Below are positions 13,655-56,652 of a stretch of DNA of 64,000 bases, one piece after another. Made by a program: the position numbers and the translations under genes. The stretch comes from Marsupella aquatica. Its lineage: Eukaryota > Plantae > Marchantiophyta. The stretch is from contig OZ316891.1 of the NCBI GenBank assembly GCA_973895155.1, forward strand, positions 2,803,801 through 2,867,800, read 5' to 3'. The notes beneath the pieces are model-generated. The model made no database searches and had not been told where the DNA came from. It was given only the letters and a program-made list of their open reading frames with translations. Each line of letters begins with the position of its first letter. Position 1 is the first letter of the stretch.

Positions 13655-13827
13655 ATGGGAATTACATCGAAAGGGAATTGCAAAAAGTGGGGAAACGGTG
13701 CTGAAATCCTGCGCTGGGAATCAACACGCAGACCTTGATACCAATTCCCAGCGAAATCCGGAGCGAAATGAGTTCAAATTAACAGTTCTGGTATTTGTTG
13801 CGTTTGGTTGTCTGGTAGGGTGCAGAG

Positions 13828-34171: not shown

Positions 34172-36611
34172 GAGATGGTGCCCCAATTATTGTAAAACAT
34201 AAATGGCCGTATCTCGATCGTTTGACCTCCGCTTGTGCATCATTTACGAAGCCGTGATCAGGAAGAGCAGGGTTACCCAAGTATTTTTCAGAAGTGAATT
34301 CTGAGAAAATTATATTTTTGACAATTGTTAGGGGCCCCTCTTTTTGCAGCGGACGGTAGTGGCAATCAGGAGGATGGTGATCGATGAACATGGTTGTTCA
34401 TATCTTAGGGATGGTCTGTGACAAATTGACAGACCCAATGCCTTTGGACACCCATACCTCAAGGTGGAAACAATAACATGCTATCCAAGTGAAAGGTGAC
34501 ATTTTTTGTTTTAATTAGGTGATTATTCCAAAAAGAGAGTTAAAGTATCAAAATCATAAAATTTTAAAATTTTAAAGTTTTTATAAGGCCCTTTAAGCAA
34601 ATTTAAGTTAGTATAAGCTCAAATGGGTAAGGATACCATTGGAAGACGTCAAGGCTACTCTGGTTTTCACATATTGGACGTCCATGGCGGCCGGCAGTAG
34701 GGCGCGAGCTTCGACCCTCAGTGCTCACTTGTTAGACCACCATTCGAGCTCATTTCAATTGCTATAGGAGCGCAACTGCCTAGAGAATGTTCACCCCGAT
34801 TCTGAACTGCCATTGATGAGACGTTGAGGAGTATTGGGTCATCGATGCTCTCTGATTTCTTAGAATTGAAGAAATTGCAATTTCAAGAGCTTCACTTGAT
34901 TAAAGCTCCTTCATTTCTATCTCTTTTCAGTTCATTCCTTCTCCCATAGTAACGCAGCTACCTTAGATCCCTGAGATTTCATTCTTGAGCCTCCATGCTT
35001 AACCATTTTTAGGAGGAGAGCTCTAGAGCCTTCTCAGATTTTCTGACACTAGAAGAAACCGGCCCATTCTGAGACCCTGCCTTAAGTGACTCTAATGAGA
35101 CCTTGCAAAATTTGTGACTCCTAGGTTTTGGGTGTCATTATAGTTACAAGTTGTGGACTGAGTTTTGGAGAATTCTTGGGAAGTCATTTCTATAACTATT
35201 GGGGAAGTTGCAACTATAACTAAGTTCAGCCAACAAGAATGAAGTTGTATAAGTGACTCCCTCTACAATAGAGCGTTATATATGTAAGAGAGCCTTAGGG
35301 TTTAACACCACAATCTAACCACATTTGACCCCGCCCAACACATACCATTTAGGATATATCCTAATTTTCTTAGTTGTCAATGGGACTAAAGGAGATGCCC
35401 TCGGGATATTGTGTGAGTACGCAACTCTACAAGGTAAGTAAAGGTCCTTGGTCAATGTCAATGCTAACAGATCTCAAATATATACTCTACATTAGAGTAG
35501 ACTGAATTACAACATATGTATGCCACAAGTTTACAAGTGTTACAACATAACAAAATAATCCCAACTAGCTAGGGTCCCACAATGGCATGCATGTAATATT
35601 AATTGGACTCATTTTTGTGTCTAAATGGGTACATTTGAAGTTATCTCCTTGGTTATCTCTAACTCTCACATATGCAAGGGCAGGTTATTTTTACTTATTG
35701 CACGCCATGCCATGCATACATACCGTCATGTACCCCCTCCACACATTGTTCCATCTAGATTCCTTTAATTAAAGGTTCAAAATCACCAAGAACTGGGAAT
35801 GCAGCTGGAACCTCCATGTACTTGGCATGTCTACATGTTATAATTAGACATATCTGATAATGGCACCCCACACACTATGCTCATGGAATGAGCATAAGAA
35901 CTTGTGACAGTCCTTACCTTAATTAATCAAGCAAGGATCTGACGGTCGTAAACTTAATCAAAGGATGATCTGACGGTTGAAAACAAATATGGGCACATTA
36001 AACCAGGTTTAGGGTTTAATGGATTCCTTCACGCCAACTCCCATTGCGCCTTGGATTCCTTTGGATTTGCGGACGAGGAGCTGATCGCGCATTCTTTGCG
36101 AGGGAAAAAAGGGGGCAGTTTGTCGATCACTAAGGCTGAAGCTGCATTGACAAATTGCAATCCCGACTGCAATGGGAGTAGTAGGAGGCAAGAAGAGCGA
36201 GTTTAGGGTGTTGCATAGACAAAACAGAATGTGAGTCGTAGGCAACATTCAGCCATTGTATGTGTTTAGCATTGATCATAGGCACTGTGGGAGGCACTGC
36301 AGGAGGCGTTTGCCACTGCGCAAGGCACTGTAGGAGGCACTTGTTCCTTCAAGCTGGGAGAGTCAATTTGACGTTCAGCTGCAACCTGGGATCGAGAACC
36401 AGGAGCTTCTCATTGCGGTTTGGTGTGCATTTGGACTGTTCTTGCAAAGTGGGACTCCAGGCCTGGAGACATTGCATTGATCGCCTTTGGATGTACATTG
36501 CAGTCCGACTAGGAGGCTTTCAAGTGGAGCTGGGTTGGAAGTGAGTTGAAGATTGAGTTGCCATCACATTGCAATAGCGGGGGATTGTTGCTCAGCTTCA
36601 CATACTGCTAC

Positions 36612-38162
36612 GGATTACTACGCAGCTTCAGTTTGAGCGGCTTGGTGCTGCATCAGCCCATGTAAGGCTGCAATCCCCTATCTTTGCTATGTGACCTCGC
36701 GGCTGCAAGTTTGGTTGACTTCTCTGTGCTGTGAAGCTGTTTTTGACTCAGGTTCCGGCCAAGTTTCACCAGCGCAAATTTTTCTAAACATGAGTGTGGG
36801 CTACAACTGGTGAGGTGGAAGGGATAAGAAAATGCGCTACCGTCATTGACAACATCTCAACCTTTTACAGTGAGCGCTATTGACATTCGGCCAGCTGTAA
36901 GTGTATTTCAAGCTTGACTTTAACTTGCCATCTGCATGAACCGGCTTGCAATAGATGTTGTAGCTTTTGCTTAGCTGCATTCACCTCCCAAGATGCCCCG
37001 TGACATCCAGGTTTGCACAATGAGATAATAAGGCTGAAATGATAAGGTAGTGATTGCCAATGGATAAAAAGCTTTATGAGAGTTGCTTCAACGTTCAGCT
37101 GCAAACTAGGATTAGGAACCAGGAACTTGTCGCGGCAGTCCAGCTTGTTTACTTGGAGCCGGAGCTGGAGTCAAGTTTCACATGTTTCTTGTTTAGTGAC
37201 AGAGTACTTCTGAGAAATGTGACAGCCCCTGTGAGAGCTTTCGGCACCAGTGAGGTAAAGGGTGTTCTTACTCATGCAATAGTCACTTTGACCTTCTGAG
37301 TTTCAGCAAATTGAGTTTCAAGTGCGGGCACTGAGAGTTGACCTGTTTGAGCTGGGGTCACTGAGAGTTGAGCTCTTTGAGCTACGGTTACAGAGAGTTG
37401 AGCTGTTTGAGATGCGGTCTCATAAGTGAACTAGATCCTCCCCCGTGTAAACGTCTAGCATAGTCACATGTCCAAGCTTTGCTTTTGACTCTGAATATAT
37501 TCACTGTCAACCATTGAAGGAGCTACGTGCATGAATTGTCTACTTATTGGGTTGTTTAGGGATTCAATATACAAAAATGACAACTTGAGTAAGGCAGTCT
37601 ACGGAGGCGCGAAAGAGTCGCGAGGAGTCGAGTTCAGCTACGGCAGTATTCACTTCAGTTGTCTCAATGTGGTTGGCGTGAGCTGCAGGTGAGCTTAGCT
37701 GTGTGCACATTTCATGTAAGTCAGGTGGTCGGTGTTTTAGGCATTGCGGAACTTGATTGACCACCCCATGGCTAAGGTTTAAGGTGCAGACTACAACAAA
37801 CATGTGTTGTTGCTGAAAGTGTTGGTGGTGAGCGACAACTGGTATTGTTTCAGCTAAAGGGAGCACATTGGAGCTTGTGTATCCATGACCTACGACCGAT
37901 TGCGGTTGCCTGCTGTTACAATTGCCGAATCAATCACGCACCCAATCTTGTGGGCAGACACAACTTTGCGGGAGTGTTGAAGGTTTAGGGTGAGCAACAG
38001 CGGAGAGCTCATTGCTTGGTGGCAGGGTTGAAGGTGGATGATCGGGCTGCAAGGCCAACCGGGGACTTGTTTTGCATTGAGCGATTGCTGCGGATTGCTA
38101 CGCAGCTTCAGTTAGGGCGGCTTGGTGCTACATCGGCACAGGTAAGGCTGCAATCCCCTATC
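36612..38162. repeat. Internal direct duplications in the CACTA leader region
   Basis: A ~70 bp segment GGATT.CTACGCAGCTTCAGTT...GTAAGGCTGCAATCCCCTATC occurs at 36612 and 38092. A 30 bp unit C.GAGAGTTGA.CT.TTTGAG occurs three times at ~37331-37420. Confidence 0.75.
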
Positions 38163-38716
38163 GACGCGGACTCACCTCGTGACTGCAAGTATAGTTGTCT
38201 AGGTGATGTATGCATTGCGTGTTTAGGGTCTAGGTGACATCGCTGCTAAGCAAAATTTGTGAGCTGCCTAGGTCCATTGCCGAATGTTGCTTCCTTTAAA
38301 TTACCTGGTGCCTGCTGTTACAATCGCCTGCTCAATCATGCACCCAATCGCCTGGAGCTCATTTGCCTGGAGCTTCATCCGTCAGATTCAAACTGTTATT
38401 GCTGCTCTGCCCTTTTGCCATGGGTTGCCGGCCTACCGGATGCTATCAACAGATTAAGAACAAGTCATATCCTAAGTCCCGGTGTTGCAGTGATGTCCCC
38501 GACCCTAAGATGCTTTCCAAACTCATCTTTCTTGTTTCCTGTTGCTGCTGATGTATGTATGTTCTCCCCTATTTTTGCTTACAGATTGGTCTCTCCACAC
38601 TTCTTGCTTGACATGATTGTTTTGCTCCTCCCTGTATCAGAACATGCCTTGTGCCCGGCGGTGGGGTGGGGGGGTGAACAGACGACCTTAAGGTTCACTA
38701 CATTTCTAGGAACTGT

Positions 38717-38877
38717 GCATCTTTCAGCTGATTTTAGCCGCAAGTTCCCTTGCTTTCCCCTGTTTTTGCTAAGATCCCTCCCACTAATCACATGCATCTT
38801 TCAGCTGATTTTAGCCGCAAGTTCCCTTGCTTTCCCCTGCTTTTGCTAAGATCCCTCCCCACTAATGACATGCATCC
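38717..38877. repeat. Two ~76 bp tandem copies
   Basis: GCATCTTTCAGCTGATTTTAGCCGCAAGTTCCCTTGCTTTCCCCTG.TTTTGCTAAGATCCC..CCCACTAAT.ACAT occurs twice. Confidence 0.9.
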
Positions 38878-40066
38878 TTTACTTTTCTCGGTGGCCCGTG
38901 CGCCTGCCTTCCTACTTTCGTTCTTATGGACTCTCCTTAGGTTTTCATTCACCTGGTTTTGGACTTTTTGCTCCGGTGGAATCTGTCTTGACAACTTGTG
39001 TTTGTTCTAATTGTTAATATCTCAAGAGGGTCGTCAACTAAGCTGAAAGGAGTCAAAGCTAACTACAAGCTAGCAAAATAATACAGAGAATGCTCCCAAG
39101 TCGAGTCAGGAGGAAGTTACTAAAACTAGACCTTCACAACTCTCGAAACTGGAAAGTGAAATTCAGCGTGAGACACGTAGCTGAAGGCCACAAGGATAAC
39201 TATATGGCCACGCTGTCCCCCATTCAAGTCCAAAGTCCTCTTCAGATTGTCTGAACTCCTATTGAATGTATTGAATAATTATTTCATCACAGAAATTTTC
39301 AGAACAAACACGGAAGCACCAGGGGGCTGAGGATTAGGTATTGAGGCTGAAGACATTGAGGTCATAAACTAGGTGTGGTTCGGGTGACAATGTTAGCAAC
39401 TGATGCTTCTTCAGGGGAACTTCCCATGTGCAGTTTATCCACACATGATTGACTTTGGTTCTTGCTGTTTTTCTTTTGGTGTACTCTTGAGTTTGGTGTC
39501 ACTCTATCCTTTCCTGTAGCCTCGAAATAGGAACACACCTGCTTAGTGGTCCCCAATCGCCCAATGATTTATAATGACTGTGTCTAGGTGATGTATGCAT
39601 TGCGTGTTCATTCCAGAAGAATGAATATGTACACTTTGCACAAACCTGGACAGATTTTGAATGTTATTTATCTGAGTTTCTGTTTGTGAGCTCTGACTTG
39701 GAGCCTTAACATTTGTGTTTCTGTGGGGCTGAGCAGAGTTTGTTCAGTCTAGAAGCTGCTGTACTGAAGTGATCAGCCTCCGGCTTGGAGGTGAATCTTC
39801 AATTTTTTGTGGATCCGAGTGACTTCTGTCCAACTGAGTTTTGCTTTGTCGGGACGATTGTGTTTGGCTAAGATGCTAGATTGTGGCTTGTCTTCTTGCT
39901 TCCAGCTTGTGTATTTTCAATTAATAGAAGTTGGGAACGAAGTGATAATTGAATTTCCTTATATTAAGCATCTTCACCTAGAAACTCAATACATAAACTC
40001 CAGGATTCCCTCGGGACATAAAATGAGCCAAATTGTCTCAAAATTGGGAACCTGCACCCGCACTAC

Positions 40067-40409
40067 TCAAACAATTGTGTTGGGCTTGGTGGCCTTGTAA
40101 GTCTTCTTTAGCTTTCGCAATGGAGGTTGAATCTTGCAGTACGTCAAGGGGAACTTGATCTTTGAATCATGGAACTGCTTGGTACTTTCTCGCTTGCACA
40201 GAGAGACAGGGACTGTCGTAGTCTTCATGATCTAGATGCAAGGGAACCGAACTCTATGACAAGAAGCCATCTCATCATACATCTGCTCTGCAGCTCCGTT
40301 TCTTGTGGTATCACAATATTCCTTGTACATGTTGTGATAACCTGTACGACTCTGATACGTGGACCCAGATACCGAAGTTCTTAATTGTGGTGGGCTTCTT
40401 TTTGAAGAT
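40067..40409 (-). pseudogene. RPL18A: Captured last exon of 60S ribosomal protein L18a (eL20), decayed
   Basis: Reads [15 protein letters not shown], then a frameshift, then [70 protein letters not shown]...[15 protein letters not shown]. One frameshift and one internal stop. Confidence 0.9.
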
Positions 40410-41417
40410 TTGGTAGACACATTATTCAGCATTTGCTAACTTCGAAACTAGAAGGGTAACACATTAAACAACAGAGAAACTCACAACATCCTCCTTTGGT
40501 CCTTCAGAGTCTGTACTTTGATTCTGAAGTTTGACTGAGTTTTTGTTTACTAAAAGAATGTGACTGTGTAAGAGTTCCGTTTGGCAGTGGATTGGTTGAA
40601 GCACTTCATGCTAGTGTGTTGTCCACAGCTCTTCAACCAGCTTTCGTCTTCCTTGTCTTTCACCACTTACGATGACATCAATTCAGCTAAGACCATAGAA
40701 GGTTCCAAAGCATCTAACTTGTAAAATCGCATTCTGTTACATCAAGGACTAAGGTGTTGGGTGCCAAAGGAGACAGCACAACAAACACGCTGAAAAGACT
40801 TCAGGACTGGGTTCAACAAGGTAGTGAAGGTGCTTAGAGCCATAGTAAGTATGCATTCTGTATCTTTCTCTATTGATGTGAGCTTGTGCATAATGGGAGT
40901 TGTAGTTGGCAAGAGTTCCAAATATGAATAGATCCAGAAGTATGTGATCATGTACTTGCTCTATAAAGTTCTGAAGATATAAGCATTTTCTGTTAGACCA
41001 GGCAACTTGGGAGTTGGTAAGTGTCACCTGCATCTGAGGGGCTACACCGGGGCATCAGTGGAGGTTCACTTGCACAACACGACAACCAGTGAATTTTCTC
41101 TCTGCTGCAACCTGCAAGGTGAGACTTTCGGTCTTTCTGGATGAAAAAACAGGAGTTTAATATGATTGATATACATGTCCGTCGAGAATATGGGTTTATC
41201 ACCAAGCTCTTTGTCTTAGGAAACTCATAAACTCAGAATCAAATATGTACTATGCACGTTTCATGCTATGTGTATACTATGACCTGTAGTTGGAACCAAG
41301 ACAATGAGTGGGAACTGATTAGTTTAGGTGGTTGCTGTTGGCGAGGCAAGTCGACCTCCTGCTCACCTTGCTCATCAAAGGACGTGAACAGAGGACATCA
41401 CAACGAAAGCAACACTT

Positions 41418-41867
41418 ATGGTGAGGACCCGCAACGCTGAACATGTGCGACTTGCACGCAAGGCAGAGATGTTGCGCCTTGAGTATGTCAGACTTGGGAT
41501 CCTTCCAGCCCAGTCTGCATGGTACTTTGAGTACCCTGTTGTTTCTAGGAACAACTACAGCCGGCCTCTACCTGCTTCAGTACCCTTCCCGACATCCTTG
41601 GTATTTGTGTCTCTTGTACATGACCCGCCACAAATTAGGTGCCAAGGGTGTGTACACAGTTGCCAATATGACTGTCCTGCCTGTAGGGCTTCTGGCCCAG
41701 AATTGGATGACCGTTCTCTTGGATGCCGATTTTTGCACAGAGCACAATGTATCATCTGGAACCACTTGCCATCCTGCAGTGTGCCTGGTGATGTCACTTG
41801 TCCTGCCCTCCCAGACCCCACCACCGGTGACTTTGGTGTCTACACATGTTTGGATCACATGCTCTAG
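41418..41867 (+). CDS. Cys/His-rich atypical PHD-like zinc-finger protein (149 aa), CACTA cargo
   Basis: ATG-started intact ORF with CQGC..CxxxCPAC...GC-x7-CIIWNHLPSC...YTCLDH, which fits a C4-H-C-C-x2-H PHD-like spacing with a WxH motif. Confidence 0.55.
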   Translation: MVRTRNAEHVRLARKAEMLRLEYVRLGILPAQSAWYFEYPVVSRNNYSRPLPASVPFPTSLVFVSLVHDPPQIRCQGCVHSCQYDCPACRASGPELDDRSLGCRFLHRAQCIIWNHLPSCSVPGDVTCPALPDPTTGDFGVYTCLDHML

Positions 41868-42564
41868 AGGACCACTTGTCACACCGCATGCACAGACCAG
41901 ATACCATTGACCTATAGCTTAACACTCTGACTTCAACACAGAGGATATTTACTTAAAATTTTGATGTATGAGCAATTTTGGGTCCAGGGTTTAGGGTCAA
42001 CAGTACATAACTTATATCCTATTATGCCTGCACTAAGCAAAATATCCTAATTTAAGAGGCTAGCAAACTCGCATAAAAGTCTCTATTGAAAGACTGCTTT
42101 CATGACTGCTTTAACCTGTGAACATTGCAACGTTGAATGAATTAATGGGCCATGTGATAATATGCAAAATGATTTATGCCTCACTTATTTGTCTCAGCCA
42201 CTATCATAACCTATTTAGGATGTATAAATTTCAACCCTTATGACACTGCTTCATACCAATCCTCTTCGAAGAATGCCTGTTTTACATGTCACGACTATTG
42301 TATGTGATTCAAATGCATGAAATGTTGTTGCAGATCTCCTTTGGTGAATCATAGCCACAATTAAAATTGAGGTGTTGGTGGAGAAATTGTATTAGGGGAT
42401 CAGTTTTGTGTGTGGGCTCAACATACCAAAAGTATGTGTGCTCTGCATCCTTGTGTGGCCATTCCAATTCATTGCAGTAGCAAATGCCTTTGTACCTTAA
42501 ATGCTAAATATATTTTACTTTCTGTGCAGTCTGCTAAATTGTAGAGTCTATCTCATGCGCAGGC

Positions 42565-43245
42565 ATGGCACGGCCTAAAATTCAAGCCAAAAAGCGTGTG
42601 ACAGAGGTGAGAAACACAGGTGTACTTGGGGCAGATGCTACTAACTTCTCTGCAAGTCAGATTTTCCAGAAGGCAGCTCATTGTTGTGCCATTTGTGACG
42701 ATGGTGGGGGCCTGGTCATTTGTGAGGGCCCTTGCATGAGGCATTTCCACCTCAACCCGGAGTCTGACCTTGCTGCAGAAAACAACTGTCCAGGGGTGGG
42801 CCTCCCGTCAACACACCAGGGAGACTGGATGTGCACTGATTGTTTGGAGAAGCAGGCTAAGTGTGCACAGTGTGGGAAGTTGGGGTCCTATGAGGGCTCT
42901 GTTGATGCTGCAGCAAATGTTAGGAAATGTCCAGACCGTTTTTGTGTGAGATTTTTCTGTTTTGAGTGTTTGCCTGCTCATGCCACAGCTTGCCCACTTC
43001 ATAGGTGCAAGGCATGTGGTGAGCATGATGATGACTACTGGACTGACATAGTCCACTGTGCTAGGTGTCCCACTATGTGGCACTATCATTGCCTGAAAGA
43101 TCATCAAGCAGAGGGTTATGCTTGTGACAGAGAAATCTATGATCACTCTGCACATGGTGTTGATCGATGGATATTTTATTGTCATCGCCATGCCATTGAT
43201 CCTACCTCGCGCACTCCTGTGAGAGATCACATATCTTGGCTGTGA
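42565..43245 (+). CDS. Stand-alone EDM2-like triple-PHD finger protein (226 aa), CACTA cargo
   Basis: Intact ORF with CAICDDGG.LVICEGPCMRHFH, WMCTDC...AKCAQCGKLGS, CPLHRCKAC, CARCP..WHYHCL and FYCHRHAIDP...TPVRDH. This is colinear with the EDM2 PHD region as I recall it (CAICDNGG..CEGSCLRSFH...LGSS...CPLHKC...CRRCPKSYH...YC..HEID...TPVRDH). Confidence 0.85.
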   Translation: MARPKIQAKKRVTEVRNTGVLGADATNFSASQIFQKAAHCCAICDDGGGLVICEGPCMRHFHLNPESDLAAENNCPGVGLPSTHQGDWMCTDCLEKQAKCAQCGKLGSYEGSVDAAANVRKCPDRFCVRFFCFECLPAHATACPLHRCKACGEHDDDYWTDIVHCARCPTMWHYHCLKDHQAEGYACDREIYDHSAHGVDRWIFYCHRHAIDPTSRTPVRDHISWL

Positions 43246-43837
43246 AGCTGAACATTGTACATGCACAGTGCACCTGATGTGGATGTACTATTTTTTGAGA
43301 TTGCAGAGATTCCAATTTTGAAAAGGAGTTGGGTAGGCGAGTTTATATAGGCAGCACTTATCTTGTGCTCTGGCGTCAGTGGCTGGGTACATGCCTATAC
43401 AAACTTATCCTTACAAGCCTTCTTGGAAGTATTTAGGCTGAGTGGTCATTTTCATAAACACTTTCATCACACTGCTAAATTAAAACAGGACTTCTAAATT
43501 GTAAGCGTATAAATTATCAGGCATGCAATTAATCAAATTGCCCTATAAGTTTGTCATTGAATGTATCCTCCTTTACAACAAAATATGTATGTGCCATGAC
43601 AAGTTGGTTGCACTTCATTTCACCACGGATATGGATTTTGTAGTATATATTCAAACAATGTCCTGCATCCGTGCAGGTGCCTAGTACGTATTGTTCACAT
43701 ATCCCTTGTACCTATCAAAATCGGACCTGAGCACCAGTGGGCCAGATCAACTCAAAAAGCAGGAATTTTGTTGTCCTTGTATTGTCAGGTGAACCCATTC
43801 TTCCAAAATTCACTGTCATCACGTAGGGTGTGTGTAC

Positions 43838-44710
43838 ATGGAGCCTGGTAAACGTAGAAAGTGTGACCACCCAGCAGTGTTTACAGGGGTCAGAGCGATT
43901 TTGGTCCATGGCCAGCATGGGTTGACCAAAGTGCATTGGCCAACTGTACAGAAACGATTCTCTGAGCTCCATGGCACTGTAGTTCAAGACATCACTCCAG
44001 AGACTACACATGTTGTTGCAGGGACATGGCTATCAGTGATAAAGAAGTGGTCATGGTCCTACATGAATTCTGCAATTACTAAGCAAGGCCTAAAAGTAGT
44101 TGAGGCCTCTTGGATCACAGATTCCATAGCACATAAGATTGTACAGGATACTGAGCAATATGAGTTGTGGGAGGATGAAGAAGCTACTGCATCAGCTTGG
44201 GCTGAACAAGAAGTCTGGGAAGCAAAGGCACGGCTTGCTGATCTCCAATATGGACCTGTACTCAACAAAGGACAGAGCTCTACAAGGCTGAAGAGTATGT
44301 TGGCTGAGGAGACGAAGCAACCAACCCCCATTCTGAAAGGGCTGAGCATGGTATTTGTGGAGGCGGGAATTGGAGAGGTTAAGTGCAAAGTGTACAAGTC
44401 CACAGTGCTTGACCTAGGTGGGACAGTGGAGGAGAATATAACAGAGGACACCACTCATGTCATTACTAAGTCATATCCCAAAGCCTGCCGCAAGTTTGGG
44501 AAGGGAGACATTCGCTTTTATGTCATGTCCCATAATGTGTTTGTGGTTTCATATGCTTGGCTTGTGGAATCAGTAGCAGCTGGGAAGCGTCAAAACCCAA
44601 TGGACTATGATCTTTTTGAGGCCTGGCCACGGAAGGGTCAGGATCCTTACAGAGAGGACTATGAGACAACAAGTGAGGAATGGGTCATTAGCGATTCTGA
44701 ATCAGAGTGA
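43838..44710 (+). CDS. Tandem BRCT-domain protein (290 aa), CACTA cargo
   Basis: Two BRCT repeats: FTGVRAILV...LHGTV...TTHVV...VVEASWITDSI...YEL and LKGLSMVFVE.G...LGGTVEE...TTHVI...KFGK...VVSYAWLVESV.AG...YDL, followed by an acidic tail. Confidence 0.85.
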   Translation: MEPGKRRKCDHPAVFTGVRAILVHGQHGLTKVHWPTVQKRFSELHGTVVQDITPETTHVVAGTWLSVIKKWSWSYMNSAITKQGLKVVEASWITDSIAHKIVQDTEQYELWEDEEATASAWAEQEVWEAKARLADLQYGPVLNKGQSSTRLKSMLAEETKQPTPILKGLSMVFVEAGIGEVKCKVYKSTVLDLGGTVEENITEDTTHVITKSYPKACRKFGKGDIRFYVMSHNVFVVSYAWLVESVAAGKRQNPMDYDLFEAWPRKGQDPYREDYETTSEEWVISDSESE

Positions 44711-45143
44711 GGAGTAGTAGCATCAGTTTGGACACAAGTTTTTTTGTATAAATCAGATCATTGAAATAAATGTGATCTTTGAACTAATGTACCTTGTTAT
44801 GGTTGGTGGCAGTTGGGCTTATTTTACTGTTGGCGGATTGTTGTTTCCTGCTGCCTGGGGGTGTCACTGTAAACGTACATGCAGAGGCGGTACATTTGAG
44901 GACAGCGGAGGAGGTGGTGACACCCTCCAACATTTAGAAATTTTGTGTCATTCACTTGACAATAGGTACACTACTTGCGAACCTGTTTTTTTCTTTTGGG
45001 GTGGTTTAGGGTTTGTGAGAATTTAGTACACGTTATGTTAACTCTTTTGGCAGATACAGTCAGGGATATATGGAACACAAATACCACCATTAGGCATCCT
45101 TGTTCACTGCTGTCCATGACTGCAGAGCTCCCAGCCTGTTACA

Positions 45144-48100
45144 ATGCACCCTGGTCACCACCCTCCCCAGACCCAGCCCAGGGCACAGGCACTGCCTTTG
45201 CATCATCCCACAAGGATATCACGCCATGATAATAAGCTTTGGCAGCGTGAAAGGTTACGAACCAGACTTTCAGGAGCCAGTAGGATGAGATGTCCTTGTG
45301 CAATCTGCCAAGGATCCCGTACCAGGGGTCTGAATGAGGTTTGGCGGCATATCGCGGTTCATGGAAGAGATCCACGACATCGAGTTTGGAATGATCCTGC
45401 AGAGGAAGATTCTTCCGACGAGGAGTGGAGGTTAGAATTTGATGCTGCCAATGCTGCAAGACGGGCAAGTAAGGTTCTGCCTGGTGCATTTGAAAATGTT
45501 GTAGCTGGTCTCTGTGGGTTGTCAGCTCTCCAACGGGATGGTGCTCAGGCAGCACCACGTGATGAAGGAATTCATGTGGAAGAGATGGTGAGAGACATCT
45601 TCCAAGACTTGGATGCATTTCATGATGGGCTGGACAATGAAGAGGATACGGTTGCAAATGCAAGTGTGCCCCCTGTCAAAGAGCCTCTTGATGAGTTTGA
45701 GATAGGGCAGGAAACCCCTGGGCATGATGGGATGTTTGGCTCTCCCCTGCAAATACAGGAAGGCAGGAAGTCTTTGTACCCCGGTAGCAAATGTTCTAAA
45801 CTGGGATTTGTCATCATGTTCCTGAACATTTGCGGCAACCACAATGTCCCCAACGTTTTGGTTTCTGAGTTGTTGGCATTCTTGCGAACAACTGTGCTAC
45901 CAGATGGTAATATTTTGCCCAAGAACATGTACGAGGCAAAAAGATGCATATCTAATCTTGGATTGAACTATGATTCGATCCATGCCTGTCCTGATGGGCA
46001 TGTTCTTTTCAGAAAGGAGTATAAAGAATCGTTGACATGCCCTAAGTGTGGGAAGCACAGGTATCGGAACTCAGGAAAGTCTATGGTTCCCGCCAAGGTA
46101 CTTCGTCATTTTCCACTCATTCCCAGACTTCAGCGGATGTTCAGAAGCCGTGCCATCTCGGAGATGATGACTTGGGCAACTGACAAGAAAAGTGATGATG
46201 GGCTACAACGACATGCTGCAGATTCAAGGCAATGGAAACTCATAGATGAGATGTATCCCGAATTTGCTGCTGAGCCGAGGAATGTCAGACTTGGGCTGTC
46301 ATTGGATGGGGTAAACCCATTTGGAGACAAGAACAACAAATTTTCATGCTGGCCTGTAACTATTTTGAATTATAACCTTCCTCCTTGGATGACTACAAAG
46401 CGATTTTTTGTTCTGATGGTCCTACTGATACCAGGGCCAGACAGTGCTGTATCTGCCAACATAGATGTGTTTCTGGCTCCCCTAGTGGAGGAATTGAGAA
46501 ATCTTTGGGAGGAAGGAGTTCTCACATATGATGTCCTACAGAGGCTTGGGAGGTTAAACCCATTCATCCTTAGAGCCATTGTCATTCTGACTATAGCTGA
46601 CTACCCAGCCCATGGGATGATATCAGGCCAAACAACAAAAGGATATTGTGCTTGTACTATCTGTGGGCGCAATGTCACCAGTGAGTACTCCAGAGCCCTG
46701 CAGAAAGTGATATACATGGGCCATCGTCGTTTTCTAAAGACAGATCACCCTTACAGAGAAAGACAGGCACTGATTGCACACTTTGGCAATGAGATTGAGC
46801 AACGTGGACCCCCGGCACGAGTGACCAAAGAGGAGATCAGGCAGTGGGGAGCACTAAGGGATGACTATATCAAACGAGGGGGCAGGGAAGATGGAGTGAG
46901 TGATCCAATAAAGCGATATGGTGTAAAAAGACTGAGCATATTGGACTTGGAGCTCAAGTACTGGAGGGTAAGCCTCTTGGAGTTGATGCTAATTGGGATA
47001 CATGTTTTGGTTCAGAGCATGTGCATTCATTTCGAAGAGAGAGACTAAACTTGAGGCATTTCCTGACGCTTTTGCATTGCAACGATGCAGGAGTTTGAGC
47101 CAAGCAAACATAACATTGATGTTATGCACATTGAAAAGAATATTTGTGAGAGTCTACTCAGATTCTTGTGTGGAGAGAAAGACACTGGTTCAGTGAGATT
47201 GGATCTTGAACAGAGGGGAATGAAACCCCATCTTTGGTTGAGGCCACATGCCCACAGAGCTGATGTGCTCTTGAAGTACCAAGCGCCCTATGTTCTGACA
47301 GACACAGAGTGGGAACTATTTGTGCAGAGGTTGAGTTCTTTGAAGGTTCCTTCAAACTATGGCAGTGCTTTCAAGAAGCATATCATGACTAGAAAGCTTG
47401 GTAGTATGAAAAGCCATGACTACCATATGTTGATGCAACAGGTGTTGCCTTTATGCCTGAGGGGCCTGTTGCAGAAGCCTGTTCGTACTGTGATCATGCG
47501 ACTCAGTGATGTGTTTCGTCGTATTTGTGTGAAGGTTTGGGATGAAACACACTTCCCACAACTGACAGAAGATGTCGCTCAGGTGCTGTGTGACCTGGAG
47601 ATTTATTTTCCTCCCGCATTTTTTGATGTCATGACCCACCTACTTGTCCATGTTGTGGAAGAGCTACACCAATTTGGGCCTGTGAGTGCTCGTTGGTTGT
47701 ACCCTTTGGAACGGTACATGAAGCTACTCAAAGGTCACGTGAGAACATATTACAAACCTGAAGCAAGCATGGCTAAAGGTTACATCAAGGATGAGACTCT
47801 GGGATTTCTGACCGAATACATAGCACAATATGAGCATGTGAAGACCAGGGTGTGGAATTCTGATGAGGAGGAAGGGGTGGTAGGTGAAGTACTGGAAGGG
47901 GCTGCAACCACAAAGAACCTGACCATATCTATGAGAGACTTGGCACATGACTTTGTATTGCACAACACTGTGGTGATGGAACCCTGGATACAGTGAGTGC
48001 ATACATGTGCTATAATCCAGTTCATGAGCTTAAATGTTGTGTTCGTGTGGTTTTCTCCTTCAGCCTGTTCATGTTTACCCAAGCTAATGCTGTGTGGTTG

Positions 48101-48875
48101 TTCGTTCAGGGAGTATGAGTCATTGAAGGCGGCCCATCCCACTGCAGGAACAACTTTTCCAGGTTTCATGGAGTGGATCAGAGTGGCAATTAGAGAGCAT
48201 CACGAGACCCACCCAGACATGGATGCAGATGTTTACCTACTGTCTAATGCCCCTAGCCTGAAAGTGAAGACTTACAAACGGATGAGAGCATATGGGAATC
48301 ACTTCCGAGTGAAGGATGGTGACAGTGCCTACAGGGTGACGAATGACTGCGGGCTCATCACTGTATTTGAGCAACAGAGCCACAATCACAACAGGGCCTG
48401 GATGGAGATGGGATATGTGGGAGAATTAGTTGACATATGGGCTCTGGACTATGGGGCGGTGTCCAGTCCTGTGATTCTTATGAAAGGTTCATGGGTGCGG
48501 CAGGATTGGCTTGCTAACAGGGCTACCATGAAGAGAGACAACGACGGTTTCTTGCTGGCCAATTTCAGAGGGAAATTGCCCGAATGGTCTGAGCCATTTG
48601 TGTTTCCTAGTCAGGTGGAGCAAGCTTTCTTCCTGGATGTGGAAGACTCCCCAGGTTGGCGTGTAGTGTGTCATAAACAGGCCAGGCAACGCCGGATGGA
48701 AGGATCAAACCTTGAGTTTCATTTACACTCTCATAGTGCCTTTGATCGTCGGCGTTCAGACCAAGTGCCTGTAGTTCATGATAGCGGGGACTTCATTCCT
48801 GTGACAAGGGTAGATGCATTTGCTGAAGGAGGCGAATTCAGAGATGCAGATGCCAACAGTGTGCCTGTGCCATGA
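45144..48875 (+). CDS. CACTA TnpD/TNP2-type DDE transposase (~1160 aa, 3 exons), apparently intact
   Basis: Exons 45144-46967, 47091-47992 and 48110-48875 are phase-compatible. Motifs: N-terminal CPCAIC..HIAVHG, IHACP..CPKCG, LRHFPLIPRLQRMF, LSLDGVNPF, IADYPAHG, HNIDVMHIEKN, MKSHDYH, FPPAFFDVMTHL, YPLERY, EPFVFPSQVEQAFF. The exact start codon is uncertain. Confidence 0.95.
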
Positions 48876-49031
48876 GTAATGTAAATTGTTTGCATAGACA
48901 TTAGTGAGGGGAAGGATGTGTAATAAAGTAATTCTGAAGCAACACAGATGTATGGATGGATGCCTGGTGATTGTGGTTGCATTGTGTTATACGGGGTGAC
49001 CATAGATGACATGTTTTTGTGGTCCAGTAGG

Positions 49032-52000
49032 ATGGAACAGAGTGACACAGAGATGTGTGAGTATGAAAGGAAAGCTATGGAACAACGAGCATACGTGAAA
49101 GCCAAAATCGCAGAACTGGATCTGGAAAAGGATGTGGCTGAATTGTAAGGGAACGATTCTCAACTACACCCCTCCGCTGAGTTTGTGTGACATGAATAGT
49201 TCAATGTGGCACTGAAATTGTGACTGTATTCTCATATTGGAATGTCGCAGAGCCACAACATTTTCAAAGAAACAAAAGGAGTACGCAAGAAGGGTGACCA
49301 GCACTATCTCTGGGCCTGTGCGTCGGAGTGACAGGTTGAGCAAGAAGGTCGTACCTACAATGGCAGAATGTGGAGATGACATTGATGCTGCACAGGTGGG
49401 TGCAGACACTAGACAAGAAGATGCAGATGATGAGTATTTTCCAGAGGAAATGGATGAGGATGGGGGTTATGAAGATGAATACATTGCAGAGCAGCCCCAA
49501 AAGAAACATGTAAGTAGTTTTCCCAACAAGGTTTTGAGTTAAAAACTCTTGTTTAGAGGTTTCATATGTTCAGTACTACACATATGTACCTTGCTTAGTT
49601 CCTGACATTGTAGTTGGTGATGTGATGCAGCGTCCTGCCAGTTCTGTTTTGCCTTCGAAGCCTGTGCATGCACCATACCAGCAGGGGGGGCTGACCTCTG
49701 ATCAAGGTTGGCGAGGTGGTAGTAGTGGTAGATCCCAGGCTGGTGCCCAATACTATGGCAGGGGGCAAGCTCTAGGTTATGCCCGTGGTAGAGGCAGAGC
49801 AGGTCCAAACCCACAATCTCGTGGGTATGGACGTCCACCTCAACCGTGGGGATGTGAGTATATATCTATATGCCAGTTCTTTGTGAAGGCATGGCACTCC
49901 TGAATTTCAGACTGCATATCAATTTTTGACATTGTTTGGGATGTATTGGATTCAGACAACATGAAATTCTGTCCACCTGCCATTGCATGCAGATTCTGCC
50001 CAACCTGATTGGGCAAATGCTAGTAATGATCAGTTCCAATGTCCACAAGGACAGACATGGGTTGAACCAGGTTGGGAGGATGGTGGTGGGTCGTGGAATG
50101 AACAAGGTTGGGAAGGTGGTGAAGGTAATTGGCAGGGATATCAAAATACAGTACCTACAAACGCTGGAAGAGGAGCAGGTAATGTCTGATCTTGTCAGCA
50201 ATGGAAGAACTCATTATATGTGGAGTCCATTCACGTGGGGGGGACTCTGCACATGTATAATGATAGAAAATGTATGTGTGCAGGTTGGACAGTTGAACCA
50301 TCGACTCAAGTATTCACTAATGCCCCTATGCAGATGCAGCACGGAAGGGGGACAGGTATGTCGGTGAATGTTCAGTTGTTTTCCTACAGTTTGTACTTAG
50401 TTTTCAGTACATATGTTTGCACACACATACCTAGAAAGTGACATCATCCGGCCCCTGTACTAGGCTGGACAGGTGGTCCAGGGTCGCAACAATTTTAGAG
50501 TGCAGTCCCTGCACAGGCATCTACAGGCAGAGCTACAGGTATGTATGTTTGAAGAATTTTTCTTGAAGTGAAGCATTGAATGTTGCCGTCATCCATTCTG
50601 CTATATGTAGTTCTCAAGCATGAATGGCATTGTATTTTCCCAGGTGGCTTCAGAACCCCAGGTAGGGTGAATGAAGGGGTGGCCAATACAACGCCCAGTA
50701 CTACCGAGAGCAGTGCACGAGGGGAGGTGACAAAGAAAGGGAACGTAAAGTTGAATGAGAGACAATGGGTGGATGCTGAGTGTCCTCGCAAGAACCGATG
50801 GCATGCTGATTTGAAAGCTGAAGTATTGCGTTGGTTAGATGTGAGTGTTATTAATTTTAAAAAACAGCATCCAAAAGATTGGAAGACTGTATGTGAAAAT
50901 GTTGCTGCCAAATGGAATTATGTGGGCAGTGATGATGGCGTGGACATAGGTTGCCTAGAGAGTACAGCAGGTAAAATTATCAAGCAAGAGAGGTGGAGAA
51001 TGCATAAGGCTTGGAAGGAAGGTGGGGAGAAGCCAGATATGCCTCCACCAGCCAGTTGTGATGATAAAGTGTGGGCAAGGTTAGTAGCTTATTTTGTAAC
51101 AGATGCTTCAAAAAAGAAGAGTTCACAGATGACCGAGGCCAGGTTGAGTGTTCAGAACCCTAATCTGACAGGAAGGACCGGCACTGCACCGACAGCTAAA
51201 CGTTTGGTAAGAATGAATGGCCTAGCTATGTAATTTATGCTACACTATGTACTATTTTTTAGTGTAAACCCATACATGTAAACTTTGTTTTTTAGTGTAC
51301 GTTCCCTGAATATTGATCGATAACTTGTGTTTGCCATGCATGTGCAGAAAGCCCAATTGGGGCAAAGCCCTTCAAAAGAAGAGTTGAGGGCTGAAATTGT
51401 GAACACCTGGGCTCAAGAGGGTGCATCTGAATCCTCCAAGCATGTAAGTTATATGAGTTCTGATTGGTAATTGAATGACCTGCGTTGAATTTCAGGTGTA
51501 CACTGTATATAACATTGATTGTGCATATATTGCCCAACATTTCATATGGAGTGATTGAACCTATACCCCTGTGTCATGTAGGGAGGTGGATCTTCACTTA
51601 CAGAGATAAGTGGTCGTTTGAAGGCTGTCGAAACATGTCTTCCAGAGATCAATGAACGTTTGAATTCATTGACTGACTTGTTCCATGTGAACTTCAAGAC
51701 ATTAATGGAAGCTGTTGTGTCGGTGAGAGATAAAATTGATTCCAATTCTGCAGGAGTTCCACCATCACCACTTGAGGTGGCAAAGTTGATGCACTCTTCT
51801 GGCATGCCAACGACATGTAGGCTTGAAGGTAAGGCCTTTACAACTGTGTGGGATATGATTATTAAATGTATAGTTTGAATTGACATTGTTTGTTGAATGT
51901 GTTATTTTCAGTAACATATATTGTGGTTGTTGTGTCCATAGAGAATAAGACAGGTGCTACAGAGAAGAAGTATGAGAACCTGGCAAATACTCGCTGTAAT

Positions 52001-52738
52001 TTAGAGGCAACAAAGTTGCAGTCTGTACAAGCAACTTGTTTGACAGAGGGCAGTCAACCATGTTTGGATGAGGATGACATTGGCAAGGGAGTGGATGATA
52101 TCAATGTTGGGGCAAATGAGGATATCAGCAAGCATGACAATGATACCATTGAGCCAGATTCATGCTATGTAGATCTTGACTCCATTGCAGAGATAAATGA
52201 TTTGCAGAATGTATCATTCTCAATGACAGGTGTGCCTCTTGTTGAGATAAATCCAACCAAAGAGCTAGTTGGTATGACACTCCCAGGTGATGAACCTGCT
52301 ACTGTGACAGTCCTAACAGAGGAACCTACTGAGCCTAGCTTCACTACTGTGAAGAGAGGAAGCATGCGCACACGAAGCAAGTCTGCTGGTGGGAGCAGAG
52401 TCACGTCAAAGGTTTCATACAAACCTCCAAGAACAGTGCTGGCAGAAAGATCTAAGGTGGAAGTGGGGAAAGCACCTAATGCTGAGGGACAAAGTGGCTT
52501 GTTAGTTGTTGATGAGAGTGGAACACGAGTAGGATTTGCCAGAGTGCAGGTTGGTTCCACAACGTTCCATGGCAAGAGGATTCCCCCAGGTTATTCAGTA
52601 GTGTTAGTCACATTACTAGTGAAACCTAAAGCTGTCCTTCCCATTCCAAACACAAATGATGATCCTCCTCAAAAGACACTTGGAGATGCTGCAGGTTCTT
52701 TGGTATTATGGCCAAGCAAGTTCATAGAGGATCCATAA
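49032..52738 (+). CDS. CACTA TnpA/TNP1-like protein (Ptta/En/Spm-type domain), 10 exons, ~876 aa, with one in-frame stop in exon 6
   Basis: Exons 49032-49144, 49251-49509, 49631-49853, 49993-50178, 50284-50355, 50464-50538, 50644-51206, 51348-51443, 51582-51828 and 51942-52738 are all phase-compatible. Motifs: EYERK...L.L start, W..LV.YF.T...KKKS...EAR..V.NP..TGR, and C-terminal HGKRIPPGY..V...LP.P..DD....LGDA.G..VLWP. TAG at 50496-50498. Confidence 0.8.
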
Positions 52739-53593
52739 CAATGTCATGCCATTATTTGTTTGTAGTGTGAGTCATGTTATGTAGATTTTAGATGTCAAGA
52801 AGCAGTACAAGAATCATGTCCTCTTGGAGATTCATAGTATCATGCATGTGCTTTCAGTTATCTCATCCTACAGTCATCAATTATGAGTTCCTGTTTTGTC
52901 TAAATTACATTGATCACATTGTAAACTATTCCATTGGAATTCAAATGATCTTCATTTTTTAGCAAGATTGTGATTGTGTTTAATTCTTATGAATGTTTTA
53001 TGTAGGATCTGCTTATATGATGCTTTGTTTCATGTGGATGTCATTCATGCTATGTTCATTTCTTGTATTCAATGTGTTATATTTCTAAAGTTAGAACATC
53101 AGGTTTCTATGTATTGTAATGTCGAGTGCTCTCTCTTCTTATGAACTGTCCCTCTGTGTTCATTAGTCATGGTTATAACTTGCATGTGAACCTTATTAGT
53201 TATAAACATGAGTATATAGAGTCCCAAATGGTTCTGTTGTGTGACGCGGGCCAGGGTCTCCATTGGTCTCTCCTGTGACACTAAATAGTCACACGCTAGT
53301 CGTTGTTGAATGCGGGTAAGTCATGTATGTGACTTACGATGTGACTCGCTGAAGTCATATTGCAGTCACGTCGAAACAAGGCTAGACTCCACAATAAAGT
53401 CACAGATCAGTCACAAATGGGTATCAAGCAAGTTGCAAAGCCCAGTATCAATAGTGACTTCCATTTTTTGGTCTCAACTTTTGCAACTCCAAGGGTCACA
53501 GCGTGGGTCAAGTCACGTTGAGTCACAATGAAGTCACATGAGCCAAAATGAGTCATATATTGCGGTCTCAGTTCACCTCGGATTCTTCTAGTG

Positions 53594-54074
53594 CTCGTAG
53601 GGGTCTGCAACTGAGGGTCAATCGTATGGAGGTGGCAATACAAAAACCACCTATCAACCCCGTGTGCAGAGTGGGAATAAATTTGGCGGTCACATGCATA
53701 CCCTTCTACCTCAAGGGCTAGTAAACACTCATGGTGCCAGGCTGTGGGACATCTGGGACAATGGACCATGTCTATCCAGTAGTCATCATCAGGCTCCCCA
53801 CAAGCAGGACAAATATGTAGTGGGCAAAGGGAGTTATCATGGGGCAGCCATGTCAAACAAAAAAAACGAACACAAAACCTGTCAGGACATTTCCACAGCT
53901 CTGGTTGATCCCCCCCAACAGTGCCATTTGTGCCACATTGAGCACACGTGCTGATATTAGTGGCACAATCAAAGCAAGTCCAAGCACCCCGATCGTCCCC
54001 CCGGACCCCAGGGCATGCATTTTGTGGTGCATAAGTGGACCAGGAATTGACATGGAATTGTCTCAGACAGGGAC
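53594..54074 (-). pseudogene. Second copy of the EDM2-like PHD cargo gene, frameshifted and truncated
   Basis: Reads PCLRQFHVN...NACPGV...WTCFDC...TCAQCG, then a frameshift, then KCPDRFCVRFFC...CPLHICPACGEPDDDYWIDMVHCPRCPTAWHHECL...EGYACDRQIYSHSAHGVDRWFLYCHLHTIDP..QTP. It stops at the TIR of element A. Confidence 0.9.
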
Positions 54075-54174
54075 ATAAAATCCAATCAAATATCCCAAAT
54101 AACCCCTAGCCTATCAACCCAACCCAGCCTTAACATCCTATCCACCACATCCTGTAAATTGGTTTGTCTTGTCA

Positions 54175-55545
54175 CACAGACCGAGAGAGAGCAAGGAGAG
54201 AATTTAGCAAGGAGAAAATTCTGCTCAGTGTTGAAGTAGTCCAACCGAAGCTGGTATAGACGTGCCACAAGACCCAGGACTCTAAGATTGGACACTCGAT
54301 TGCTAATCCTAAAAGATTGTGTAGAATAAAAGTGGACAATTGTTGGGCTAGCATTTTCATAGTTGAATAAAGGAATTCACAAGTCAGAGAACCCAGTACT
54401 TCCGCACAACACTTCCGCACACTAGAATACTAGTGTATGACATTAGAGCAATTGAAGCTCCACAGTCGAGGCAGAATGAAAGTGCCGACACTATACTATG
54501 ATCCAGTCTACACTTCCATAGTGAAATCCTGGCTCGACCCTGGCCCCGACCTGAGATTGCTATAGTGATGGGCATGCATAAGAGAGGGAGAGATTTCTGT
54601 ACATACTTGAGTATTGAGAGAGAGAGAATTCTGCAGCAAAGAAGATGATGGTGAGCAAAGACAAACAAACAGAGTACTGACAAAGTGGAGAGAGACACAC
54701 GGACGGAGAGAGAGCAAGGAGAGAATTAAGCAAGGAGAAAATTCTGCTCAGTGTTGAAGTAGTCAAACCAAAGCTGGTACAGACGTGCGAGAAGACCCAG
54801 GACTCTAAGATTGGACACTCGATTGCTAATCCTGAAAGATTGTGTGGAATAAAAGTGGACAATTGTTGGGCTAGCATTTTCACAGTTGAATAAAGGAATT
54901 CACAAGTCAAAGAACCCAGTAGAACTTAGTTGTAGAGTAGCATATTGAAGCAAACATGCGAGTCTACGAGCAGCAAATTAAAATATTGGCAATGGCAACA
55001 CAAACGCCCGACCCTGAGACCACCAGTGAAGACAAAGCAATGACAATGCAGAGGGCTCTGAGTGATTGCAGACCTCAGGAGTTGAGAAACCCTGGAATGA
55101 TTTCTTTGTGCCTAGCTTGGCAAAAGAGAAAGCTCTCGAACGGGTGGAAAATTGATCTGTAAGTGCCACAGACAGAGTGTGGCTCATCAATTCTGTGGCT
55201 CATCCGTTGTCCATGGAGGAGTACATTATAGAGTATCACATTTGACTAATGTCCTATACATGGAATACAGGACCGTTGAGTTGAAATCGCAGCTCAGCAA
55301 AGGCAAAGAAAAACCCCCCGCACCCCACCTTAGTTCTGCACAACACTTCCGCACACTAGAATACTAGTGTATAAGGATGGTGGGGATTCAAGCTTCACAG
55401 CCAAAGTAGAATAAAAGTGCCGACAATATACTTTGATCTACATTTCCATAGTGAAATCCAAGTTTGACCCCGGCCCCGACCTCAGATTGCTATAGTGATG
55501 GGCGTGCATAAGAGAGGGAGAGATTTTGTACGTGCTTGAGATTTT
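54175..55545. repeat. Mosaic direct duplications inside CACTA B
   Basis: A ~225 bp block at 54175-54399 is repeated at ~54697-54921. A ~200 bp block beginning CACAACACTTCCGCACACTAGAATACTAGTG at ~54405 is repeated at ~55339. Confidence 0.85.
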
Positions 55546-56494: not shown

Positions 56495-56652
56495 AGCCAG
56501 TGACATGTAAGGGAGCCAGTTACATGCAAGGGGCTCATATAAAGGAGCCAATGACATGTAAGGGGCTGATGTAAAGGAGCCAATGACATGTAAGGGAGCC
56601 AGTGACATGCAAGGGGCTCATGTAAAGGAGCCAGTGACATGTAAGGGGCTCA
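56495..56652. repeat. Minisatellite built from GAGCCA(G/A)TGACATG(T/C)AAGG units
   Basis: Six copies of AGCCARTKACATGYAAGGG, interspersed with GCTCATGTAAAGG-like spacers. Confidence 0.9.

Follow-up and report, generated by a model that had tools for sequence, protein, structure and literature searches.

The locus described here raises the question of why a DNA transposon should carry a gene whose product appears to consist of two BRCT domains without any catalytic part. It is located in the liverwort Marsupella aquatica, within a stretch of 64,000 nucleotides (positions 2,803,801 to 2,867,800 of the forward strand of contig OZ316891.1, assembly GCA_973895155.1), which in its full length is called the window in the following and to which all coordinates refer. 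The window contains a CACTA element in which an open reading frame (ORF) for a twin-BRCT protein stands just ahead of the transposase gene, and the data presented below describe a CACTA element of ordinary build whose accessory gene, conserved and of a repair type, is unusual.

The twin-BRCT gene and the element carrying it

The gene is a single intronless ORF on the plus strand, which runs from an ATG at 43838 to a TGA ending at 44710 and codes for 290 residues. A preliminary description of this DNA had given exactly these limits and had placed the ORF immediately upstream of the transposase, which is correct, as 433 bases separate its end from the transposase ATG at 45144 on the same strand. 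The gene and its product show the following features.

43838 to 44710, plus strand: twin-BRCT accessory gene, stop codon included; product of 32.9 kDa with a pI of 5.8
43850 to 43861, plus strand: basic KRRK stretch, residues 5-8, also present in the closest relative (P0001)
43871 to 44167, plus strand: BRCT repeat 1, residues about 12-110, with the signature TH[VI][VI]A..W..V...WSW
44177 to 44251, plus strand: acidic linker helix, residues 114-138, taken from the structure model and kept in the family alignment
44252 to 44314, plus strand: disordered linker, residues 139-159, with pLDDT values below 50
44318 to 44623, plus strand: BRCT repeat 2, residues about 161-262, the more polymerase lambda-like of the two repeats
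44624 to 44707, plus strand: conserved acidic C-terminal tail, residues 263-290, directly preceded by FEAWP
44765 to 44770, plus strand: possible polyadenylation signal AATAAA, 55 bases past the stop, proposed from sequence alone

A Pfam scan of the ORF recognizes two stretches each of PF00533 BRCT (E 2e-13, 50.8 bits compared to a cut-off of 21.3) and PF16589 BRCT_2 (E 2.1e-11, 44.4 bits, cut-off 27.3) and finds no other domain in the 290 residues, and thus neither a catalytic domain nor any domain of an X-family polymerase (8-kDa, fingers, palm, or thumb). The profiles of the two repeats, which were built from the window protein plus five partial relatives for repeat 1 and plus three for repeat 2, align with an hhalign probability of 99.2% (E 2.3e-19, 23% identity over 100 columns). 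The earlier view of the product as two related BRCT repeats lacking a catalytic domain is therefore upheld both by the two stretches found by Pfam and by this alignment. The repeats are related to each other, yet each has its own, separately conserved signature. The KRRK stretch close to the N-terminus is likely a nuclear localization signal, which would direct the twin-BRCT protein to the nucleus. The C-terminal tail contains a Ser/Thr-acidic motif, Y.TTSEE (residues 272-278, window positions 44651-44671), which is conserved in the close relatives and which we liken to the casein kinase 2 sites of XRCC1 and XRCC4, presumed to recruit FHA-domain proteins.

The element around this gene is delimited by two inverted ends and contains, in the order PHD-finger ORF, BRCT gene, TnpD transposase, and TnpA-like ORF, four genes on the same strand. 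The features needed at this point are as follows.

35047 to 53593, plus strand: CACTA (En/Spm-type) DNA transposon of about 18.5 kb, right end firm, left end tentative
35047 to 35061, plus strand: candidate left terminal inverted repeat
53579 to 53593, minus strand: right terminal inverted repeat, inserted in an older PHD gene copy
42565 to 43245, plus strand: PHD accessory ORF, 226 residues, coding for clustered zinc fingers of the NSD-like PHD kind, recognized weakly by Pfam
45144 to 48875, plus strand: TnpD-type transposase gene (Transposase_21, DUF4218, and DUF4216, from Pfam) with two predicted introns
53594 to 54105, minus strand: PHD gene remnant of an older element, coding for a 56% identical protein and cut exactly at the insertion point

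The 11-mer CACTAGAAGAA occurs in exactly two copies in the 64-kb window, which are inverted to each other and lie at 35047 (plus strand) and 53593 (minus strand). The element ends begin with CACTA and match each other in 12 of their first 13 bases, and subterminal GTGACT/AGTCAC motifs are clustered at both of them. These ends were found by a wider search, a narrower search for terminal repeats with CACTAC/GTAGTG ends having returned nothing convincing. The right end is regarded as firm because it interrupts the minus-strand PHD ORF to the base and coincides with a drop in depth. This truncation also implies that the element inserted into a PHD gene belonging to a related element of greater age. 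A blastn comparison of both flanks with the element returns the inverted PHD repeat only, with no remnant of an older element to the left of 35047.

The transposase gene is recognized by Pfam through Transposase_21 (tnp2/TnpD; E 1.8e-70, 45144-47048), DUF4218 (E 4.7e-28, 47085-47996), and a weak match to DUF4216 (E 1.3e-4, 47997-48875). The in-frame stops between its three ORFs are contained in predicted frame-preserving GT-AG introns (46968-47090 and 47993-48109), and the gene can thus be read as intact.

The depth of contig words in two runs (X1 and X2) amounts to thousands from position 40000, where these data start, to about 53800 and to 130-500 beyond, and a contig of lower depth begins at 53594. 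The BRCT gene lies 3.8 kb inside the high-depth stretch and is covered by contigs from four organism codes at an identity of at least 90%; depth is similar over the BRCT and transposase genes, with the proviso that contig depth cannot rank genes or give a copy number per gene. One contig of run X2 joins position 43901 to 47711, omitting 3809 bases that include the greater part of the BRCT gene and a large portion of the transposase, which looks like an internally deleted, non-autonomous derivative. A second BRCT copy is absent from the window as judged by tblastn. The BRCT gene is cargo of a high-copy liverwort CACTA element: the high-copy stretch, the terminal repeats, and the TnpD-type transposase all bear out the previous description of the ORF as transposon cargo.

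Family, constraint, and class of the BRCT repeats

Two close relatives retrieved by a word-indexed search, P0001 and P0002, are 60% and 54% identical to the window protein, of full length, and unbroken, with 126 invariant columns; they share the start Met, the acidic C-terminal tail, and the stop. The same kind of search with the family alignment returns 4 proteins. A HMMER search against 1.84 billion representative proteins gives 60 matches at E values of 1e-3 or lower and 12 at 1e-10 or lower, and as all of these 12 are no longer than 313 residues, no fusion to a catalytic domain is found. The same BRCT-helix-BRCT layout occurs at 22-27% identity in P0005, P0007, P0009, P0012, and P0018, and a single-BRCT relative (P0026) comes from the liverwort Riccia fluitans. 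The product of the twin-BRCT gene is one of a small family whose members are stand-alone proteins of the BRCT-helix-BRCT type. A metagenome scan returned no relative with the family alignment A1 and a single contig of 1404 bases with P0206, and the Protein Atlas offers generic BRCT clusters alone for the twin-BRCT protein, with scores below 0.9.

For the 173 contigs from four runs that cover the ORF at an identity of at least 80%, no insertion, deletion, or joint is listed within it. The 12 indels listed for the wider stretch, out of 63, all lie outside the PHD, BRCT, and transposase ORFs. The variant sites in the BRCT gene fall on codon positions 3, 1, and 2 in 21, 12, and 7 cases (chi-square p 0.023; 40 of 63 sites, those listed), and 17 of the 40 listed variants are synonymous, with synonymous sites making up 22% (binomial p 0.003; an expectation of 30% raises it to 0.063). 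The crude dN/dS calculated from the 40 listed variant sites of 63 is 0.38. One apparent stop codon is part of a three-base change co-occurring in the same contigs and encodes Asp. This variant pattern is a hint of constraint, not a measurement. Taken together, the third-position bias of the variants and the intact relatives at 54-60% identity argue for purifying selection, and the ORF looks as if it were maintained by selection. A captured and decaying gene fragment of the Pack type was considered and rejected, as the ORF is complete, with conserved start, stop, and tail, has no indels listed in the 173 contigs, and shows the low dN/dS value given above.

The predicted structure, an AlphaFold2 model based on a family alignment of 16 sequences, has a mean pLDDT of 84.7 and contains two BRCT folds, one formed by residues 19-108 and the other by residues 170-257; for the larger part of each, the block means of pLDDT exceed 90. 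The linker from about residue 109 to 169 is modeled as a long acidic helix (114-138) followed by a disordered part (139-159), and the pTM of 0.47 indicates that the placement of the two BRCT domains relative to each other is not predicted with confidence. Foldseek matches are proteins with at least two BRCT domains, namely Rad4, LIG4, BRCA1, TopBP1, and Rtt107, with E values down to 9e-12 and, for the tandem matches, TM-scores of 0.24-0.29 and rmsd values of 12.7-19.8 Å. In VIA-align comparisons, chains with at least two BRCT domains cover both repeats (model residues about 10-263). Against single BRCT domains, repeat 2 matches those of PARP4 (Z 15.0, rmsd 1.5 Å, 93 residues), XRCC1 (BRCT2, Z 13.7), REV1 (Z 11.9), and polymerase lambda (Z 11.0). 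The model thus predicts a plain BRCT fold, and fold comparison cannot tell the BRCT class; the Foldseek check proposed along with the preliminary description therefore yields matches to BRCT folds without discriminating between classes. A complex prediction for a homodimer of the twin-BRCT protein scores 0.21 compared to a mark of 0.32, a value that counts neither way on binding.

A view on the sequence relatedness of the repeats points to polymerase lambda. In per-domain scores of a repeat-2 hidden Markov model (HMM), three X-family polymerases confirmed by Pfam reach 44.1-48.7 bits, and 53.5 bits are obtained for a member of a cluster that bears the name 'DNA polymerase lambda-like', with REV1 at 32.1, PARP at 28.8, the best domain of a multi-BRCT protein at 31.6, and BRCA1-like rows at 34.2-38.9 bits. 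The repeat 1 domains of the family itself score 28-67 bits, which suggests that repeat 1, repeat 2, and polymerase lambda-type domains are about equidistant. The 23 matches outside the family that were scanned with Pfam comprise 3 X-family polymerases with polymerase lambda fingers, 1 REV1-like protein, 1 PARP, 15 BRCT-only proteins, which are mostly multi-BRCT, and 3 proteins without a family; a cluster-mate of a Solanum match combines BRCT, HHH_8, and polymerase lambda fingers. In BLASTP, the polymerase lambda rows score 41.2-51.2 bits at identities of 22-34%, and repeat 1 scores 43.5 bits. Repeat 1 gives weaker and mixed matches in a profile search of the PDB.

Three trees of 72-76 domain rows place both repeats and the animal and fungal polymerase lambda domains on one side of the main split and the multi-BRCT, BRCA1-like, and PARP rows on the other. 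This split receives an SH-aLRT value of 94 in the first quick tree. In the careful tree, both repeats and all six named polymerase lambda rows (6/6) share one side with a bootstrap value of 80 and an SH-aLRT of 98, and the clade containing repeat 2 of the window stands beside the animal and fungal polymerase lambda group (88/86). These results give moderate support to the assignment of polymerase lambda-type BRCT as the nearest named class, by a small margin, and a 'duplicated polymerase lambda-like BRCT' appears to be a fair description of the protein, with descent not proven. Two other origins were set aside. One is a derivation from LIG4, the repeats being closer to each other (E 2.3e-19) than to LIG4 (E 2.3e-5), and the other a derivation from BRCA1 or BARD1, which in plants have a PHD domain plus two BRCTs, as the trees put BRCA1-like rows across the main split from both repeats.

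A comparison with known BRCT proteins shows partial likenesses in several directions. The BRCT of polymerase lambda is a single, non-tandem N-terminal domain which, as in the twin-BRCT protein, is preceded by a basic N-terminal stretch, and a MAFFT alignment shows that the plant polymerase lambda and both repeats lack three residues after TH[VI] that are present in the animal and fungal rows. Unlike polymerase lambda, the twin-BRCT protein has no polymerase domains, a duplicated BRCT, and an acidic tail behind it, and the identity is limited to the 22-34% mentioned above. XRCC1 and the C-terminal BRCT-linker-BRCT part of LIG4 resemble it in having two BRCTs, apparently not packed head-to-tail, with a long linker and no enzymatic part there; the leading Foldseek matches include chains with the LIG4 tandem BRCT (9cq3_f, E 1.4e-11; 3ii6_Y, E 1.5e-9), and XRCC1 BRCT2 is the second-best family among the single-domain fold matches. 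In contrast, the sequence likeness to LIG4 is weak and involves one repeat, and the TM-scores to tandem structures are as low as given above.

Tandem readers of the BRCA1/MDC1 type also have two BRCTs per chain, and BRCA1 BRCT1 is the top match in a single-sequence search of the PDB (E 0.0065). In repeat 2, the KFGK motif has its lysine aligned to the pocket lysine of BRCA1. The twin-BRCT protein differs from these readers in that its linker, at about 50-60 residues, comprises an extended helix plus a disordered segment, and in that no domain packing is predicted with confidence. In BRCA1-type readers, the phosphate pocket combines a Ser/Thr-Gly after strand 1 with a helix-2 Lys, both contributed by the first repeat. 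At these positions, as judged by eye, repeat 1 has His-Gly and a Trp in place of the Lys, and repeat 2 has Ala-Gly and a Lys; the residue preceding the conserved Gly varies across the BRCT-helix-BRCT family. As neither repeat contains the Ser/Thr-Gly, it seems unlikely that the twin-BRCT protein is a classic phosphopeptide-reading tandem.

Possible roles of the twin-BRCT protein

The role which we tentatively propose, as a plausible reading and somewhat short of a probable one, is that of an adaptor: the intronless accessory gene of a high-copy CACTA element would supply a two-BRCT protein that docks the transposase, or the breaks made by it, onto host factors for end joining and gap filling. 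The passages concerned in PMC4444747 state that the BRCT domain of Arabidopsis polymerase lambda mediates binding to LIG4 and XRCC4, for which Roy 2013 is cited, and that this polymerase plays a part where transposons have been excised, with reference to Huefner 2011. With the polymerase lambda-type BRCT as the nearest class, this binding by the plant module suggests that the twin-BRCT protein would likewise bind to the end-joining core and dock there at the breaks of the element. The divergence of the repeats into two conserved types, along with the acidic Ser/Thr tail conserved behind them, would favor an adaptor that bridges two or more different partners over a simple competitor for one site. 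The net effect might be that the donor or target site is resealed more quickly, or else that the repair pathway shifts, and no preference between the two is expressed. A more far-reaching version states that a liverwort CACTA family encodes its own break-repair factor, made from a duplicated polymerase lambda docking module, which acts on Ku and XRCC4-LIG4 at the breaks of the element and steers their repair, for example by excluding polymerase lambda so that the sister copy restores the donor and the element gains copies. This version is considered improbable.

Several observations weigh against the adaptor reading and the class assignment on which it depends. The sequence likeness behind the link to repair is remote, at 25-34% identity. 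In the repeat-2 HMM scores, the unnamed protein P0036 reaches 45.6 bits, level with the polymerase lambda rows, and in BLASTP, the BRCA1-like P0023 reaches 48.9 bits compared to 49.7-51.2 for the best polymerase lambda rows. The profile search of the PDB with repeat 2 ranks BRCA1 BRCT1 (35.6 bits, partial coverage) and Rtt107 (35.4 bits) above human polymerase lambda (32.1 bits, full length), which is followed by Rad4 (29.3 bits) and REV1 (28.5 bits), and the fold comparison likewise ranks the BRCTs of PARP4 and XRCC1 above that of polymerase lambda. The trees, in which no branch of this kind is starred, are based on 105 columns and on outgroup rows that are themselves matches to the family profile, and hence on a biased sample; when four long rows are removed from the quick tree, the main split falls to 77, with the plant polymerase lambda-like row and REV1 on the side opposite to the repeats. 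The variant sites are linked within few contigs, 40 of the 63 being listed, and the binomial test gives the p value of 0.063 at the 30% expectation. Finally, a three-base target-site duplication is absent at the element ends, the flanks reading TGA (35044-35046) and CTC (53594-53596), so that either the left end at 35047 comes from another copy or one flank has been rearranged.

The likeness of repeat 2 to the polymerase lambda BRCT, as originally noted, is therefore retained in part. The per-domain HMM scores and the careful tree (80/98) are in its favor, whereas the margin is small, in BLASTP as well, and the PDB and fold rankings do not follow it. The same applies to the BRCT phylogeny which had been suggested as a check, as it delivers the split at 80/98 in the careful tree, but only 77 in one quick tree, in which the plant row moved.

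Among the other explanations, a role in chromatin or silencing, exerted together with the PHD protein, fares best, although we regard it as rather doubtful. The twin-BRCT protein would then bind to chromatin or to phospho-proteins and steer integration or counter host silencing. The NSD-like PHD gene is the next one upstream, in the same orientation, and has a counterpart in a related element; the BRCT fold serves protein docking in general, with the BRCTs of PARP4 and XRCC1 as the closest folds, and anti-silencing accessory proteins have been described for VANDAL elements in the relevant part of PMC12973397. However, adjacency is the sole tie between the PHD and BRCT genes, the nearest named sequence relatives are BRCTs of repair polymerases and not chromatin readers, and both repeats lack, by eye, the Ser/Thr-Gly of the phosphate pocket.

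The preliminary description had raised the possibility of a dominant-negative protein, which we consider unlikely. Such a decoy would occupy the dock of polymerase lambda on Ku and XRCC4-LIG4 and hinder fill-in end joining, so that gap repair from the sister chromatid restores the donor and the copy number goes up. This would fit polymerase lambda-like BRCT modules without a catalytic domain and an element of very high copy number in two runs, as well as the binding to XRCC4/LIG4 and the action at excision sites reported in the passages of PMC4444747 referred to above. A decoy would need only one BRCT, whereas two distinct conserved repeats, the linker helix, and the acidic tail are all retained here. 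Moreover, blocking the polymerase site need not block ligation.

It is less probable still that the gene is a passenger, namely a host or older BRCT gene that was captured and spreads without serving transposition. CACTA elements often carry captured genes, and the relative in Riccia fluitans is annotated as an ordinary gene. Against this, the ORF is complete, its start, stop, and tail are conserved, it is intact in relatives of 54-60% identity, no indels are listed among its copies, the variants are biased toward third positions, and no close host-type protein with a catalytic domain is found. Finally, En/Spm elements express TnpA and TnpD from one transcription unit by alternative splicing and the transposase gene described here has short predicted GT-AG introns, but it is very unlikely that the ORF is an upstream exon spliced to the PHD or transposase coding sequence and not a separate protein, since the relatives share the start Met and run to the conserved acidic tail and stop, all 12 of the 12 family matches at E values of 1e-10 or lower are no longer than 313 residues, and an AATAAA follows 55 bases past the stop.

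Neighboring genes and significance

The PHD accessory ORF matches PHD-1st_NSD (E 4.6e-5), PHDvar_NSD (7e-5), and PHD_NSD (0.0039), all below the Pfam cut-offs; a PDB search gives NSD2 at 0.011, and among Atlas clusters, a streptophyte PHD_NSD family comes closest, with a score of 0.92. The PHD protein may read chromatin marks on behalf of the element. Two further ORFs lie downstream of the transposase gene.

50580 to 51233, plus strand: TnpA-like ORF, matching the start of Transposase_24 at E 1.5e-4, below the Pfam cut-off
51884 to 52738, plus strand: ORF of 284 residues within the element, with no Pfam family matched

The ORF of 284 residues may represent further exons of the TnpA-like gene. 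A Pfam search of 46 further ORFs within the element returned the weak Transposase_24 match alone.

To the right of the element, the region 54100-56830 consists of lower-depth repeats, with direct repeats of 226 and 90 bases and many contig joints, and is probably debris of older elements. Short tandem arrays are present at 56495-56657 (32/19-base units, 4 copies) and at 62962-63197 (19-base units, 9 overlapping 66-base copies). To the left of the element, the host gene for Noc2 (nucleolar complex protein 2; 13819-15864, plus strand) is a single intronless ORF of 681 residues. Its product shares 87% identity with a protein from Calypogeia fissa, a leafy liverwort, but 54-56% with proteins from Marchantia and Riccia, which points to a leafy liverwort, or a close relative of one, as the host. 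Fragments of MatE (6514-8051, minus strand) and ClpP (18312-18767, minus strand) are found near it.

In its general make-up, the element resembles En/Spm (CACTA), with which it shares the CACTA ends and subterminal repeats, the TnpD-type transposase, a weakly recognized TnpA-like ORF, and additional proteins encoded by the element. It is unlike the elements that encode the plant transposon accessory proteins TnpA, MURB, and VANC in that its extra proteins are a twin-BRCT and a PHD-finger protein. A supplementary table of a survey of 1007 plant genomes (PMC12973397) assigns RTT107_BRCT_5 to an accessory protein in 1 of 775 active CACTA clusters; the main text of that survey does not contain the term BRCT as far as a term search covers it, and in the searchable full-text literature, BRCT-class accessory proteins of CACTA elements appear solely in this supplementary row. 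A term search of PMC12730594, within the text it covers, returns no mention of BRCT or PHD.

The finding bears on a general problem of cut-and-paste transposons, which leave double-strand breaks and rely on host repair. How transposons in plants influence the choice of the repair pathway, and hence their own copy number, is largely unknown. A transposon protein which is composed of repair-type docking modules alone, is constrained, and is encoded beside the transposase in an abundant element would offer a direct handle on pathway choice. The twin-BRCT protein is amenable to expression, to pull-down experiments, and to deletion from a marked element. Together, the twin-BRCT and PHD-finger genes add two unusual accessory genes to the CACTA repertoire, from a plant lineage that has been poorly studied.

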